From an uncultured Bacilli bacterium (GTDB lineage: Bacteria; Bacillota_I; Bacilli_A; RF39; UBA660): 56,043 nt of DNA. Positions 12,532-56,043 of the stretch are shown piece after piece. The position numbers were made by a program, and so were the translations under genes. The stretch lies in the NCBI GenBank assembly GCA_947632545.1, contig CANRPP010000005.1, forward strand, positions 1 to 56,043, written 5' to 3'. Under the pieces are notes generated by a model that was given only the letters and a program-made list of their open reading frames with translations, was not told where the DNA came from and made no database searches. Every line of letters starts with the position of its first letter. Position 1 is the stretch's first letter.

Positions 12532-13046
12532 AAATTACTATTTATTATTAATTGTTTACTACTATCAGTTGTACTACAAGTAGTTAATACTAATTGATTA
12601 TTTGAAGTTTTATTAATTTCAATATCCCCATCTTTATCTTCTAAAAATTTATTATCTACTACATATGTATATTTATTATTTTTATATTGAAGTAATATTT
12701 CATCTCCTACTTTTAATTTATATAAATTATTAAAATATGATACCTCACTATTACCAGAATGTGCTGCTAGAAAAATAATACTATTTTCGTTATCAGGTAA
12801 AATTGATCCTTCAAGTAATTCTACATTTTTTGAAACATTATTATTTTTACTATTTATTTTATATATAGGTTTATTAATATTAAGTTTTTTTATAGATAAA
12901 TTAGCTATAGGTAATTCTTTAGGTATAACACTATTATTAGAAATATTTTTTGTAATAGTATCAGCTGAAATATGAAATGTCATAATAATAAATAAACAAA
13001 ATATAATACAACTAACTAAAAATATTTTTTTTAACAACAAGTCCAC
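12522..13046 (-). CDS. Sortase (compact, class D/F-like), non-canonical triad
   Basis: N-terminal TM; LAAHSG, YFNNLYKLKVGD, LVLTTC; the Arg position appears as Gln (SKQLII). Confidence 0.88.
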   Translation of the reverse strand: MDLLLKKIFLVSCIIFCLFIIMTFHISADTITKNISNNSVIPKELPIANLSIKKLNINKPIYKINSKNNNVSKNVELLEGSILPDNENSIIFLAAHSGNSEVSYFNNLYKLKVGDEILLQYKNNKYTYVVDNKFLEDKDGDIEINKTSNNQLVLTTCSTTDSSKQLIINSNLKK

Positions 13047-51441: not shown

Positions 51442-52917
51442 TTATATTACTATAGCAATCATATTGTTAGAACCTTTATTAACTACTTTAGTTAGTGTTT
51501 GTTGTAGTTTTAATCTAATATTATCAGGCATTAAATTTATTTTAGACTGAATTCCTTCTTGTACAATATTATCTAAACTTCTACCAAATATTTCACTACT
51601 CCAAATACTTTTTGGATTAGTTTTATAATCTTTCATCAAATAGTCAATTAGTTCTTTACTTTGAACTTCACTACCTATAATTGGTTCAAAAGTAGATTCT
51701 ACATCAACTCTAATCATATGTATAGATGGTGCTATTGCTTTTAATTTAACACCATATCTAGGTCCTTGTTTAACAATTTCTGGAGTATTTAATTTCATAT
51801 CATCAAGTGAAGGTACAGCAACGCCATATCCAGTTTGTTTAACCATTTTTAAAGCATATTTTATTTGGTCATATTCACGTTTTGCAATATTAAAATCTTG
51901 GAATAATGCTAATAAATCTGCTTTATTGTTAACATCAACATCTATTATTTCTGTAAGAGTTTCATTATATAAATTAGGTGGAGCAGTTAAATTAATAGTG
52001 ACTATACCTGTAGATGGGTCAACATCTGCTAAATAGCTTTTTTCAATCATAGGATTATCTAGGAAATGATTTGTAATAGAATCAATATCTCTTAATTTAT
52101 CTACTTCAACTACACTTTCTTTAATAGATTTGATATATTCTTTTTTAATTTTATGATCATGATTTAATATCGCAATCCATTCAGGCATGTTAACTTTAAC
52201 TTCTAAAACAGGGAATTCATATAGTGCTTCTTTTAAGATATTATACATATCTTTTTCACCCATTGCTTCAACACTTATAGGAATAACTGGTACATCATAT
52301 TCTTCTTTTAATGAATTAGCTAGTCTTTCAGTTTCAGGAAGAGTAGGATGTACAGAGTTTAAAATTACAATAAATGGTTTACCAATACTTTTTAACTCAC
52401 TTATGACTCTATTTTCAGCTTCCAAATAATCACTTCTATCAAATTCTCCGATAGAACCATCAGTAGTTACTACTATACCAATAGTAGAATGTTCTTTAAT
52501 AACTTTTTCAGTGCCAACTTCAGCAGCTTCTACAAAAGGTATATCTTCATTGTACCAAGGGGTTTTAACCATTCGTGGTCCATTTTCATCTTCAGCACCT
52601 ACAGCTTTATCAATAACATAACCAACACAATCAATTAATCTAATATTACAACTAAAATCATCAATTCCTATTTTAGCAGCATTATTAGGTACAAATTTAG
52701 GTTCAGTTGTCATAATAGTTTTTCCAGCTGCACTTTGAGGTATTTCATCAAGTGCTCTTTTTCTTTCATATTCATCTTCAATATTAGGAACAATTAAAGT
52801 TTCTACCATTCTTTTTATAAATGTAGATTTACCAGTTCTAACAGCACCAACAACTCCTAGATATATATCACCACCACTACGGGCAGCAATGTTTTTAATA
52901 ATTTCTTGCTTTTCCAT
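51442..52917 (-). CDS. spoIVA: Stage IV sporulation protein A
   Basis: DIYLGVVGAVRTGKSTFIKR, MTTEPKFVP, IDCVGY, TTDGSI, IW.SEIFGRSL. Confidence 0.98.
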   Translation of the reverse strand: MEKQEIIKNIAARSGGDIYLGVVGAVRTGKSTFIKRMVETLIVPNIEDEYERKRALDEIPQSAAGKTIMTTEPKFVPNNAAKIGIDDFSCNIRLIDCVGYVIDKAVGAEDENGPRMVKTPWYNEDIPFVEAAEVGTEKVIKEHSTIGIVVTTDGSIGEFDRSDYLEAENRVISELKSIGKPFIVILNSVHPTLPETERLANSLKEEYDVPVIPISVEAMGEKDMYNILKEALYEFPVLEVKVNMPEWIAILNHDHKIKKEYIKSIKESVVEVDKLRDIDSITNHFLDNPMIEKSYLADVDPSTGIVTINLTAPPNLYNETLTEIIDVDVNNKADLLALFQDFNIAKREYDQIKYALKMVKQTGYGVAVPSLDDMKLNTPEIVKQGPRYGVKLKAIAPSIHMIRVDVESTFEPIIGSEVQSKELIDYLMKDYKTNPKSIWSSEIFGRSLDNIVQEGIQSKINLMPDNIRLKLQQTLTKVVNKGSNNMIAIVI

Positions 52918-52940
52918 ATACATTCTCCTTTATTCATTTA

Positions 52941-53298: not shown

Positions 53299-53487
53299 TT
53301 AGTACATCTTTTTTTCTTTTTTATCTAACTGTTTTTGATATTTTTCACGTTTTTTTGCAATTTCCTGACATTCCCTAGAAAATTGTTCAATAGTAATAAC
53401 CTTTTTATCATATCGATCTTGTAATATTTCTAAAGCTCTATCTAGGCTATCTAATTCAGTTTTTGGATCTTTTGGTTTAAAAAACAT
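53299..53487 (-). CDS. Small helical hypothetical protein (SHOCT-like)
   Basis: TAATG coupling to der; L..L...Y....IT.EQF pattern. Confidence 0.6.
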   Translation of the reverse strand: MFFKPKDPKTELDSLDRALEILQDRYDKKVITIEQFSRECQEIAKKREKYQKQLDKKEKKMY

Positions 53488-54794
53488 TAATCACCACTCC
53501 TATTCTTAAATTGTAACACAATAGGAGTTCCTTGTAAATCAAAGCTTTCACGTAATTTATTTTCTAGATATCTTTCATATGAAAAATGAACTAATCCCTT
53601 ATTATTAACTCTTAATGTAAATTTAGGGGGTTTAATTCCTGTTTGACTAGAATAATATATCTTTAAACGTTTTCCTTTATATGAAGGTGGTTTATTTAAT
53701 TGATATGCATCTAAAATAACATCATTTAGTACACTAGTTTTTACTTCTCTTTTAATATTTTCTAAAACTTTAATAACTTCAGGCATTAATGTATGAATAC
53801 GTTTTTTAGTAAGTGCAGATAAAAATACTATAGGTGCATATGTTGCAAATTGAAATTCTGCTTTCATAAGTTTAGTAAATTCTGATATAGTAGTATCTTT
53901 AACTAAATCCCATTTATTGACAACAAATATTAAACCTTTACCACGTTCAATGGCATATCCTGCTATATGTTTATCGTGTTCGGTAATACCTTCTTCTGCA
54001 TTTATAACTACTAAACACAAATCACTAGAATCAATAGATCTCATAGAACGAATTAAACTGTATTTTTCAATGGTATCAAAAATTCGACCCTTTTTTCTCA
54101 TACCTGCTGTATCAATTAGTATATATTCTTCACCATGATATTTAAAAACAGAATTAATAGAATCTCTAGTAGTACCAGAAATATCAGATACAACAACGCG
54201 TTCCTCGTTTAATAAGGCATTAGTTAAAGAACTTTTACCAACATTAGGTCTACCAATAATACAAAATTTTAGTCTCGTATCGTTATTTTCTTTATCAATA
54301 GTATTAAAATCTATTGTGATATTATCCATTAATTCACTATAGCCAGTATTATGAATACTACTAATAGGAATATATGTATCAAAGCCTAGTTCATAAAAAT
54401 CATATATATTATTTTGAGCTGATTTAACATCAATTTTATTAATGGCAACAACAACACGTTTTTTACTCTTTCTTAAGATATCTCTAACAACTAAATCATT
54501 ATGAGTAATTCCTTCTTTACCATCAACCATAAATAATACAACATCAGCTTCTTCAATAGCAATTTCTGCTTGTATTTTTATCTCTTCATTAAAAGTTTCT
54601 TTTTCTACATCAATTCCACCAGTATCTATTAAATAAAATCGCTTATTATTATAGATGGCTTCTTGATATAATCTATCTCTAGTAACTCCAGGAGTATCTT
54701 CAACAATAGCAAGTTTTTGACCAATAACCTTATTAAAAAAGGTACTTTTACCAACATTAGGTCTTCCTACTATTGCAACAACAGGTGTAGCCAT
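53487..54794 (-). CDS. der: Ribosome biogenesis GTPase Der/EngA
   Basis: Two GRPNVGKS domains, GVTRD/GTTRD, C-terminal KH-like domain. Confidence 0.98.
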   Translation of the reverse strand: MATPVVAIVGRPNVGKSTFFNKVIGQKLAIVEDTPGVTRDRLYQEAIYNNKRFYLIDTGGIDVEKETFNEEIKIQAEIAIEEADVVLFMVDGKEGITHNDLVVRDILRKSKKRVVVAINKIDVKSAQNNIYDFYELGFDTYIPISSIHNTGYSELMDNITIDFNTIDKENNDTRLKFCIIGRPNVGKSSLTNALLNEERVVVSDISGTTRDSINSVFKYHGEEYILIDTAGMRKKGRIFDTIEKYSLIRSMRSIDSSDLCLVVINAEEGITEHDKHIAGYAIERGKGLIFVVNKWDLVKDTTISEFTKLMKAEFQFATYAPIVFLSALTKKRIHTLMPEVIKVLENIKREVKTSVLNDVILDAYQLNKPPSYKGKRLKIYYSSQTGIKPPKFTLRVNNKGLVHFSYERYLENKLRESFDLQGTPIVLQFKNRSGD

Positions 54795-54861
54795 AATATC
54801 CCCTCCAAACTAGGCCTATTATAACATGAAGTTTTATTTTTGTATAGTCGTTAAATTTTAT

Positions 54862-54891
54862 TTGACAAAACGCTCTGGGGGGGGGTAGAAT
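54862..54891 (+). promoter_or_regulatory. sigma-A-type promoter with G9 homopolymer in the spacer
   Basis: TTGACA 54862-54867, G9 54877-54885, TAGAAT 54886-54891 (18-bp spacer). Confidence 0.78.
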
Positions 54892-54924
54892 TATAGTATA
54901 AGATAAAAAAATACGGAGAAAGTT

Positions 54925-55860
54925 ATGAAAAGGATAGTAAAGAAAAATTATAAAATACTAATAGGTATAGTAATAGGAATAATTATATCAACAACAATAG
55001 TATATAGTGCAGAAAATATATTAACAGGAGAAGATATTTCATATGATAATAAAACAAGTGGAGAAGAAACAGTACAAGGTGCGATAGATGAATTATATGA
55101 AAAAGCAAATAAAAGTAAAGCCCCAAAACCAAATAATACAAATATAGTAGCTGTATATTATTATGATGAAACAAAAGGATCAGAAGATTTTTGTGTAACA
55201 GGAGATGAAGAAACCTGTAAAGTAAATACATGTTATTTAAATAAAGCAAAAGATAGTTGCCCATCTGGAACAATAGTAGAATATAAAGTAAATGATAATG
55301 ATACTGTAAGATTTCATGTAATGAAAGATAATGGAAGTAAAATGATATTACAAAGTCAACAAAATACACTAAATAGTATACAGTGGTATACTGAAAATAA
55401 TAATAGTTATGGTCCAACAACAGCATTAAGTGAATTGGAAAAAGCAACAGAAAATTGGGCTAATGTAAATACATTTGATTATTCAATAGGAGATGATAAA
55501 TCAACATTAGGATATTCTGGTTGTAATGGTTCTCAAGAGTGGACAACAACTCCTTATATTTTAGAAAAAAAAGGAATTAAAGCAAGAATGATAACAATGC
55601 AAGAAGTCATTAGTTTTGGATGTAATAATGAAGATAATAATAATATTGTCTCTTGTCCAATATGGATGTACAATTATTTAAAAGATTCAATAAATTTTGG
55701 GGGAACAATAAATGACTCAAATGCATTAGCTTCCTATTGGACTATGTCTACAGCAATGTGGAAAGATATTATGGCTTTTGTGATATATAAAAATACATAT
55801 AGCACTTTGAGTACTAATTTAAAATCAGGAGCCAGAGCAGTAGTAGAAATAAATAAATAA
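54925..55860 (+). CDS. Exported surface protein with C-terminal C-type-lectin-fold-like (DUF6273-like) domain
   Basis: Signal/TM N-terminus; SYDN..SG..TVQGAIDELY linker; ARMIT..E, YWTMS...AFVI...GARAVVEI terminal pattern; several Cys. Confidence 0.7.
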   Translation: MKRIVKKNYKILIGIVIGIIISTTIVYSAENILTGEDISYDNKTSGEETVQGAIDELYEKANKSKAPKPNNTNIVAVYYYDETKGSEDFCVTGDEETCKVNTCYLNKAKDSCPSGTIVEYKVNDNDTVRFHVMKDNGSKMILQSQQNTLNSIQWYTENNNSYGPTTALSELEKATENWANVNTFDYSIGDDKSTLGYSGCNGSQEWTTTPYILEKKGIKARMITMQEVISFGCNNEDNNNIVSCPIWMYNYLKDSINFGGTINDSNALASYWTMSTAMWKDIMAFVIYKNTYSTLSTNLKSGARAVVEINK

Positions 55861-55886
55861 AAATTTACAAAAAAGTAAGGGAAAAT

Positions 55887-55925
55887 AAACTTCTTTTGCA
55901 AATAATAAAGCAAAAGGAGTTTTTT
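55887..55925 (+). terminator. Rho-independent terminator
   Basis: AAACTTCTTTTGC-N10-GCAAAAGGAGTTT plus T run. Confidence 0.8.
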
Positions 55926-55961
55926 AGTGTGAAAAAATATAAATAAAAAAGGAGAAATGAT

Positions 55962-56043
55962 ATGACAAAAGAAAAATTTTATACCTGTAGATATGACAGA
56001 GCATTTAAAGAAGTCTTTATGAATGAAAATAATAAAGATATAT
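55962..56043 (+). CDS. 5' fragment of a probable Rpn/PD-(D/E)XK nuclease-transposase family gene (runs off the window)
   Basis: RBS AAAGGAG; MTKEKFYTCRYDRAFKEVFMNENNKDI contains the D..FK..F N-terminal motif. Confidence 0.65.
   Translation, partial: MTKEKFYTCRYDRAFKEVFMNENNKDI

Follow-up and report, generated by a model that had tools for sequence, protein, structure and literature searches.

Poly-G tracts in the promoter spacers of predicted surface-protein genes: a candidate phase-variation system in an uncultured Bacilli bacterium

The locus examined here raises the question of whether a run of nine guanines, placed between the -35 and -10 hexamers of a promoter, could act as a length-variable switch of a surface-protein gene. 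It lies near the end of a stretch of 56,043 nucleotides (nt) from an uncultured Bacilli bacterium (contig CANRPP010000005.1 of assembly GCA_947632545.1), which in the following is called the window. According to the first-pass annotation, positions 54,862 to 54,891 hold TTGACA, nine bases, nine G's (G9) and TAGAAT with a spacer of 18 base pairs (bp), and G8 would give 17 bp. Direct reading confirmed this layout and the arithmetic is right. The promoter and its gene belong to the second of two types, A and B, which are distinguished below. The features of the locus are:

54862-54867, + strand: -35 hexamer TTGACA of the type B promoter (direct read; 11/12 in the promoter scan; TTGACA occupies this offset in 13 promoters of the genome).
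54877-54885, + strand: poly-G tract G9, occupying the 3' half of the spacer 54868-54885 (18 bp, aaacgctct plus G9) and abutting the -10 hexamer (pattern count).
54886-54891, + strand: -10 hexamer TAGAAT (direct read, promoter scan).
54915-54918, + strand: GGAG upstream of the type B gene (sequence read).
54925-55860, + strand: type B gene of 311 amino acids (aa), ATG at 54925 (open reading frame, ORF).

The distance from TAGAAT to the ATG of the 311-aa gene is 33 nt. With 11/12 hexamer matches the site was the top scorer of its region in the promoter scan, but the number of promoter-like sites in that region (12) did not exceed that in shuffled sequences (9.0, standard deviation 3.4), so that the scan alone proves little. 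No known RNA element was detected in the leader by Rfam at E values up to 1. By contrast, the G8 pattern matched the window four times, corresponding to two G9 tracts, against an expectation of 0.02, and none of 100 shuffles reached four matches. The second tract belongs to a gene at the opposite end of the window:

94-124, + strand: type A promoter, TTGACT (94-99), t, G9 (101-109), tagttattg, TATAAT (119-124), with a spacer of 19 bp.
149-1042, + strand: type A gene of 297 aa, ATG at 149 (translation).

Both tracts, at 101-109 and 54877-54885, were thus found within -35/-10 spacers and in the t-G9-tag context, as had been claimed.

The genome to which the window belongs (G000; the window is its contig C5) comprises 1,045,355 bases in 42 contigs with a guanine-plus-cytosine (GC) content of 24.3%. 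Its G/C runs are distributed bimodally. Their number falls from 180,392 single bases to four runs of length 6 and none of length 7, after which 23 long runs are over-represented, namely eleven runs of 9, ten of 10, a single run of 11 and a single run of 8 that is truncated at a contig end. In the same genome the number of A/T runs decays smoothly, with 55 runs of A9 or T9. A crude gene call assigns 86% of the genome to coding sequence and places all 23 long tracts between genes. All of them are directed at a start codon 39-70 nt downstream. Hexamer pairs with 11/12 matches flank all 22 complete tracts in the scan. Genome-wide, every G/C run of at least 8 is positioned in a -35/-10 spacer upstream of a secreted or surface paralogue. 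Type A promoters (11 copies, including that at position 101) consist of TTGACT or TTGACC, 0-1 base, the run, 9 bases and TATAAT, and type B promoters (12 copies, including that at 54862) of TTGACA, 9 bases and a run abutting TAGAAT, TATATT or TATGAT. The tract adjoins the -35 hexamer in type A and the -10 hexamer in type B. In type A and B genes with an assembled 5' region it stands 40-41 nt ahead of the start codon (71 nt at C10:39415). The sole member of these families lacking a tract is a divergent type B gene, the second in an operon on C34, and three further members are cut by contig ends. Clusters of these genes are present on C10 and C21. The alternative offered by the first-pass annotation, that the shared t-Gn-tag flanks mark a protein-binding site, is disfavoured, since TAG is the start of the -10 hexamer in type B while the -10 hexamer of type A is situated 9 nt further on, and since tract length ranges from 8 to 14 across relatives.

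The spacers of the 22 poly-G promoters measure 18 bp (6), 19 bp (13), 20 bp (2) or 21 bp (1). For comparison, all hexamer pairs of the genome with at least 11/12 matches were counted, spacers containing G8 being excluded. These other promoters clearly prefer 17 bp (114 pairs, versus 32-46 at each other spacer length from 12 to 24). The single peak at 17, without an excess at 16 or 18, indicates that 17 bp is the working distance, and each assembled poly-G promoter is one to four bases longer than that.

The number of G's differs between copies whose flanks are alike. Within the genome, two tract lengths occur in five of the six groups whose flanks are identical over 15 nt on the upstream and 6 nt on the downstream side, and half of the promoter pairs that are at least 93% identical over 59-80 flanking bases (9 of 18) differ in G number. 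One pair, identical over 59 bases, has G10 (C14:29882) and G9 (C37:4679) and possibly represents two ends of one locus. These ends might have remained unjoined through length heterogeneity, but the upstream block also occurs at C2:73291 and the case is hence ambiguous. The sister genome G232, 91% identical in the der region, contains 15 tracts of G8-G11 and shows both of these promoter types. Of its loci, four could be matched to G000, three by the upstream flank and one by the downstream gene sequence (88% identity), giving G11 vs G9, G10 vs G9, G9 vs G9 and G9 vs G9. Two of the 15 tracts (L086 and L091) have no promoter context; one of the two is embedded in a long open frame and is a possible frameshift-type switch. 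Elsewhere in the family the range is wider, one flank carrying G9, 9, 10, 11, 11, 13, 14 and 14 in G051 and another G11, 12 and 13 in G178.

The exact type B promoter pattern had no match in metagenome contigs. A broader pattern necessarily returns promoter-like contexts and was used for comparing lengths at the same locus, not for enrichment. By this means an organism of ~40% GC, partly labelled human gut metagenome, was found in which TTGACA, 9 bases, the run and TAGAAT precede a secreted protein. In 11 contigs (L101, L106, L107, L116, L132, L143, L155, L170, L174, L177 and L179), the flanks of which are up to 98-100% identical, this promoter contains G8 (2, one interrupted after eight G's), G9 (8) or G10 (1). 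Natural length polymorphism of the design is thereby demonstrated, albeit for an organism outside this lineage.

Which proteins are encoded behind the tracts? A basic-hydrophobic N-terminus was found in all 18 scored downstream proteins (a 19th complete ORF, at C8, is outside the 18 scored) versus 242 of 877 crude genes, an enrichment of signal-bearing proteins. The earlier statement that no tract precedes a housekeeping gene holds genome-wide, as far as 23 of 23 intergenic tracts and an N-terminal hydrophobic signal in 18 of 18 scored ORFs tell. On these sequence features the downstream proteins are predicted to be displayed at the cell surface. Type A products share a signal peptide, ending in YA followed by E or similar and without a lipobox, and a C-terminal tail, while their middle parts are unrelated. 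In the window protein the tail consists of NPNTS, a hydrophobic stretch and KRRFN (one paralogue has VPNTG), and the middle is a right-handed beta-helix (Pfam Beta_helix PF13229, E 1.4e-09). Other type A middles gave no Pfam or NCBIfam match above the cut-off, and the LPXTG and anchor models of these databases did not match the type A proteins. Anchoring of type A proteins by sortase is suggested by the tail and strengthened by the presence of seven sortase genes in the genome, two of which flank type A clusters on C10 and one of which is located in the window:

12540-12899, - strand: sortase domain, candidate anchoring enzyme for type A proteins (PF04203, 63.7 bits).

Type B products have an N-terminal hydrophobic anchor, which looks uncleaved, a conserved stalk motif and a variable Cys-rich C-terminal domain resembling DUF6273. 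The 311-aa window protein has 116 homologues, every one unnamed or "hypothetical" at source, of which a single one carries PF19789 (DUF6273). Six Cys residues are invariant across 37 aligned sequences. Among the Atlas neighbours of the homologue P0043 are DUF6273 clusters (feature score 0.94) and models of prepilin N_methyl proteins (template-modelling score, TM, 0.56-0.64). The window protein itself gave no Pfam or NCBIfam match above the cut-off, and a profile search of solved structures with the type B protein returned best matches of only E 0.5. A type B-style promoter on C8 precedes a third kind of secreted protein of 324 aa. Repeats of the kind that underlie size variation in the Vlp proteins of Mycoplasma were considered and dropped, since Tandem Repeats Finder reported only weak AT-rich rows of 2-3 copies (L010; window 54800-56043).

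The arrangement recurs in relatives. Within the genus, 37 sites with the type B layout were identified in 8 of 17 genomes and none with the reversed control. Every run was at least G8 although the pattern allowed G6, and the run stays pure, in contrast to the nine bases that separate it from the -35 hexamer, which vary freely. Their spacers measure 17 bp (3), 18 bp (13), 19 bp (18) and 20 bp (2), with one unclear. In the family, sampled with one genome per genus, the pattern G8TA is present in 86 of 201 genomes (85 of 200 genera), i.e. ~40% of the sampled genera. Twenty-one of these genomes have at least 10 matches, with up to 57 in ~1.4 Mb. The reversed G8TA control was near zero apart from G055, G116 and G160, which are among the 21, and G086, G092 and G093, which have fewer matches. 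The more demanding pattern TTGACA-N5-10-G7+-N0-6-TAnnnT occurs in 30 of 201 family genomes and its control in none of the 201. In nine other family genomes 49 tracts were read. Twenty-eight of them precede a signal-bearing ORF and one a non-signal ORF; for six the crude finder gave no ORF, and in 14 cases a contig end intervenes. One of the 49 lies inside a long ORF. The protein families behind the tracts differ between genera. In G182 (L022, L027, L037 and L042), tracts of G8-G10 were seen in TTGCTA/TTGCAA...TATTTT promoters before type IV pilin-like genes with the motif GFTLIELL. Outside the family, a class-level sample gave a match in 52 of 220 genomes, only two of which have at least 10. 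In G033 and G370, which belong to other families, TTGACA is located within a dozen bases upstream of 16 of 24 tracts and several tracts precede lipobox-bearing proteins; signals resembling a lipobox were observed in these two genomes only.

Slipped-strand phase variation of promoter spacing, with most loci OFF in the consensus, is the probable explanation of this arrangement. The G9 tract would make the spacer of a strong sigma-A-type promoter variable in length, this promoter being one of about 23 which together may constitute a phasome and each of which would drive its own member of two paralogous surface-protein families. Slipped-strand mispairing at replication would add or remove G's and thus alter the distance between the -35 and -10 hexamers. 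The near-perfect hexamers, preceded by A/T-rich sequence, suggest that the promoters are intrinsically strong and would be throttled only by the slippage-prone spacer. Spacers of 17 bp (G8 for the promoter at 54862, G7-G8 for type A) are the putative ON state, those of 18-21 bp the weak or OFF state. Since each gene has one tract, the loci could switch independently and generate cells with different combinations of surface proteins, while a bulk consensus would display the commonest alleles, which would have OFF lengths. A consensus in which all loci appear OFF fits rare ON variants in a mixed population, a situation that the cited part of PMC5476646 describes for an uncultured mycoplasma. That switching is reversible and frequent, and which length is ON, we infer from sequence. 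The idea of the first-pass annotation that a dispersed surface repertoire is controlled by poly-G contingency promoters is upheld as regards the architecture and its status as a candidate, by virtue of the 23 of 23 tracts, the length differences and the recurrence in the family.

Several observations weigh against this explanation. None of the 22 promoters has a 17-bp spacer in the assembly, and most type A copies are two G losses away from it. The 23 tracts are not independent, as gene duplication has multiplied two or three original promoter lineages. Spacers of 15-16 bp, measured to the nearest TAnnnT, occur in the family (16 bp in G051, 15-16 bp in G128 and G230); the rule that spacers are never below 17 bp, which held in the genus, failed here and was dropped. 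Upstream of the tract no clear -35 hexamer is discernible in G020 and G149. In G230 all 13 copies have G10, 12 of them on one flank with a nominal spacer of 15 bp and the 13th on another (C1, C3, C4, C5, C7, C8, C9, C10 and C12 of that genome). Either a repeat has spread recently here or the promoter must be read differently; the set shows that a tract can stay constant among copies and counts against universal length lability. Moreover, homologues of MutS (858-aa frame, MutS_V) and MutL (592-aa frame, DNA_mis_repair) are present:

C6:12282-12635 and C6:16767-17318: MutL and MutS homologue matches, close together (profile matches).

Although the genome has 23 long G runs, its mismatch repair appears to be intact, and the idea that its absence causes instability was rejected.

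The sequencing runs bear on variation within a population. Twelve runs from five studies, mostly rabbit gut metagenomes, contain parts of the stretch, all of them in the form of Logan assembled contigs; no RNA run is among them. Four runs (X1, X4, X6 and X7) were compared over 53300-56043, and no length heterogeneity within a population was seen in their assembled contigs. The der-anchored contigs end in or at the tract, at 54883 (X1), 54885 (X4) and 54883 (X6). The only X7 contig over the site, with 8 other letters and 5 gaps, stems either from a relative or from a paralogue. X4, X6 and X7 leave several bins of the type B gene uncovered, and short contigs with one extra G (G10) in X4 and X6 carry the substitutions of paralogous promoters. 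Contigs halting at the run would be expected from length polymorphism, but equally from poor read quality after poly-G or from a repeated promoter block.

These points can also be read in favour of a G run that is a fixed cis-element, be it a regulator site or a structural or extended -10-like feature, which was inherited together with duplicated promoters and genes. Differences in length would then be slow evolutionary indels without a role in switching, and regulation would be conventional. The confinement of the tracts to two or three promoter lineages, assembled spacers that are all 18-21 bp instead of a mix around 17, the invariant G10 in G230, the mismatch-repair genes and the contigs, in which no heterogeneity was seen, are all in line with such an element. 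On the other hand, a site of fixed geometry is hard to reconcile with 8-14 G's on identical flanks and with a tract that is positioned by the -35 hexamer in one promoter type and by the -10 hexamer in the other. The sequence between the -35 hexamer and the tract diverges freely, yet the run remains pure, and uninterrupted runs of G9-11 are described as intrinsically slippage-prone in the relevant section of a review (PMC11868660). A fixed element is considered rather unlikely.

A second possibility is that the promoter and the 5' coding block form a mobile or gene-converting cassette, recombination between the conserved 5' and 3' ends of paralogues being the main source of variation and the G run a by-product or hot spot. 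The genes do have conserved 5' ends (promoter, ribosome-binding site and signal peptide), in type A also conserved 3' ends, around unrelated middles, and they are clustered on C10 and C21. Downstream of der, the type B gene exists only in G000 and G232, while four other species (L071-L074) have different genes without poly-G at this place, which shows rapid turnover or insertion of family members. However, each gene possesses a complete promoter and start, neither silent cassettes nor a single expression site were seen, and the promoter is not flanked by inverted repeats. Furthermore, such a process would operate on top of spacer-length switching and not in its place. As the main explanation a cassette is improbable. 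An invertible promoter (inverton) was also rejected, since flanking inverted repeats were absent from 54600-55100, where only short AT-rich pairs, 70-92% complementary, were found; no recombinase search was made.

For nine of the 23 tracts a contig end is less than 150 nt away (C5:101, C7:48280, C14:29882, C21:17971, C24:31, C29:142, C37:4679, C42:1 and C42:3383), 14 are internal with conserved sequence on both sides, and in relatives such as G219 several contigs start inside the run. The fragmentation of these assemblies is due in large part to the repeated poly-G promoter blocks. That the tracts are artefacts of sequencing or assembly, for instance poly-G from two-colour chemistry, can be dismissed as highly improbable in spite of these contig ends, which are expected from a repeated block of promoter and 5' gene sequence, because the 14 internal tracts stand between conserved flanks, these contexts are found again in genome records whose accession prefixes and assembler naming styles are unrelated as well as in four Logan runs, and the reversed control was 0 in most genomes.

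Some observations concern the host and the surroundings of the locus. A full-length SpoIVA of 493 aa is encoded at 51442-52923 on the - strand, in a genome of 1 Mb. Two relatives, with 81-92% identity, are contained in bins titled Muribaculaceae, probably by a binning or labelling error. Sporulation genes, sortases and a 1-Mb genome would fit the predictions made for parts of RF39, not those for RFN20/ML615J-28, in the pertinent section of PMC10868615. At 55963-56043 an ORF leaves the contig end, with 27 codons available. The summed contig depth amounts to 39-69 over 55876-56043 (X1, X4), compared to ~2-20 over most of the stretch, indicating that the contig ends inside a multi-copy element.

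A literature search for RF39, RFN20, Erysipelotrich-related or metagenome-assembled Bacilli, in which subscription journals were thinly covered, found no description of poly-G promoters, in agreement with the statement of the first-pass annotation that none was known for this lineage. The mechanism as such is already known; new are the lineage, the protein families and the scale, comprising every long G run of a genome, two families and ~40% of the sampled genera. The arguments are about evenly balanced as to whether a large family of uncultured small-genome gut Bacilli (>200 genera), along with neighbouring families, uses poly-G spacers as a general switch of the surface repertoire, most loci being OFF and cells displaying different combinations. 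The general switch would extend to sortase-signal, DUF6273/pilin-like, type IV pilin-like and lipoprotein genes, and this extension, as a part of the joint claim on gut Bacilli, is just as finely poised. If true, no earlier mutational phasome would be on record for Gram-positive-type gut commensals that are known from metagenomes alone, and the switch would be a hidden source of phenotypic differences at strain level, of phage or immune evasion and of assembly fragmentation. Simple-repeat phase variation is documented mainly in small-genome pathogens. Here an uncultured commensal lineage, widely distributed in the guts of animals and humans, appears to organise its whole set of surface proteins by the same logic. 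Should the tracts switch, a metagenome consensus would hide which of ~20 surface genes per genome are expressed, selection by host, immunity or phages could be followed in vivo directly from the tract lengths in reads, and the repeated promoter blocks would account for many contig breaks (the nine of 23 tracts close to an end). Unique flanks permit locus-specific read counting, which makes the system easy to test.

How does the arrangement compare with known systems? In Neisseria meningitidis porA and opc and in Bordetella fim, poly-G or poly-C tracts between the -35 and -10 hexamers of a surface-protein gene set their distance and produce graded or ON/OFF output. The design is the same, but these are single loci of Gram-negative pathogens, whereas here essentially every long G run and whole paralogous families of an uncultured Gram-positive-type gut commensal are involved. 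Most tracts of Campylobacter and Helicobacter are intragenic frameshift switches, and Campylobacter is said to lack mismatch repair. In this respect the genome studied here is different, since all 23 tracts are intergenic and MutS and MutL are kept. What it shares with the phasome of these bacteria, as outlined in the cited sections of PMC6321876 and PMC8355987, is a small AT-rich genome with some 20-30 tracts of G8-G11 that form a separate length class and are associated with cell-surface genes; the latter source mentions both intergenic and intragenic poly-G tracts. Consensus alleles that are mostly OFF, with rare ON variants, were reported from genome-resolved metagenomics of Candidatus Mycoplasma girerdii, an uncultured relative, where, however, the repeats treated in the relevant part of PMC5476646 are dinucleotides and a few homopolymers inside genes (BspA-like, restriction-modification) instead of promoter poly-G. 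A Gram-positive example of a homopolymer upstream of a surface-protein gene is Spy1336/R28 of Streptococcus pyogenes, in which, according to the cited part of PMC7098570, a naturally polymorphic intergenic poly-T of 9, 10 or 11 sets the transcript level of an LPXTG protein. By contrast to the promoters described here, R28 is a single locus, and its T tract is presented there as changing the distance between direct repeats close to a regulator gene, not a -35/-10 spacer. In Mycoplasma hyorhinis, indels in homopolymers of the vlp promoters switch surface lipoproteins, as stated in the respective passages of PMC10502178 and PMC11868660. Both systems have a multigene family of variable surface proteins with an own homopolymer promoter for each gene, conserved 5' ends and divergent mature parts, and combinatorial ON/OFF expression would be the expected result here, too. 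The host lineages are related, given that relatives of the window are titled uncultured Bacilli or Tenericutes. The differences are that switching in this genome is a candidate read from sequence, that in-frame tandem repeats for size variation were not found, and that the products have no lipobox but a signal peptide with a sortase-type tail or an N-terminal anchor. Finally, unlike Vlp, the tracts consist of poly-G and not poly-A, and they are distributed over about 23 loci of two unrelated families in a cell-walled, probably sporulating host with SpoIVA and seven sortases.

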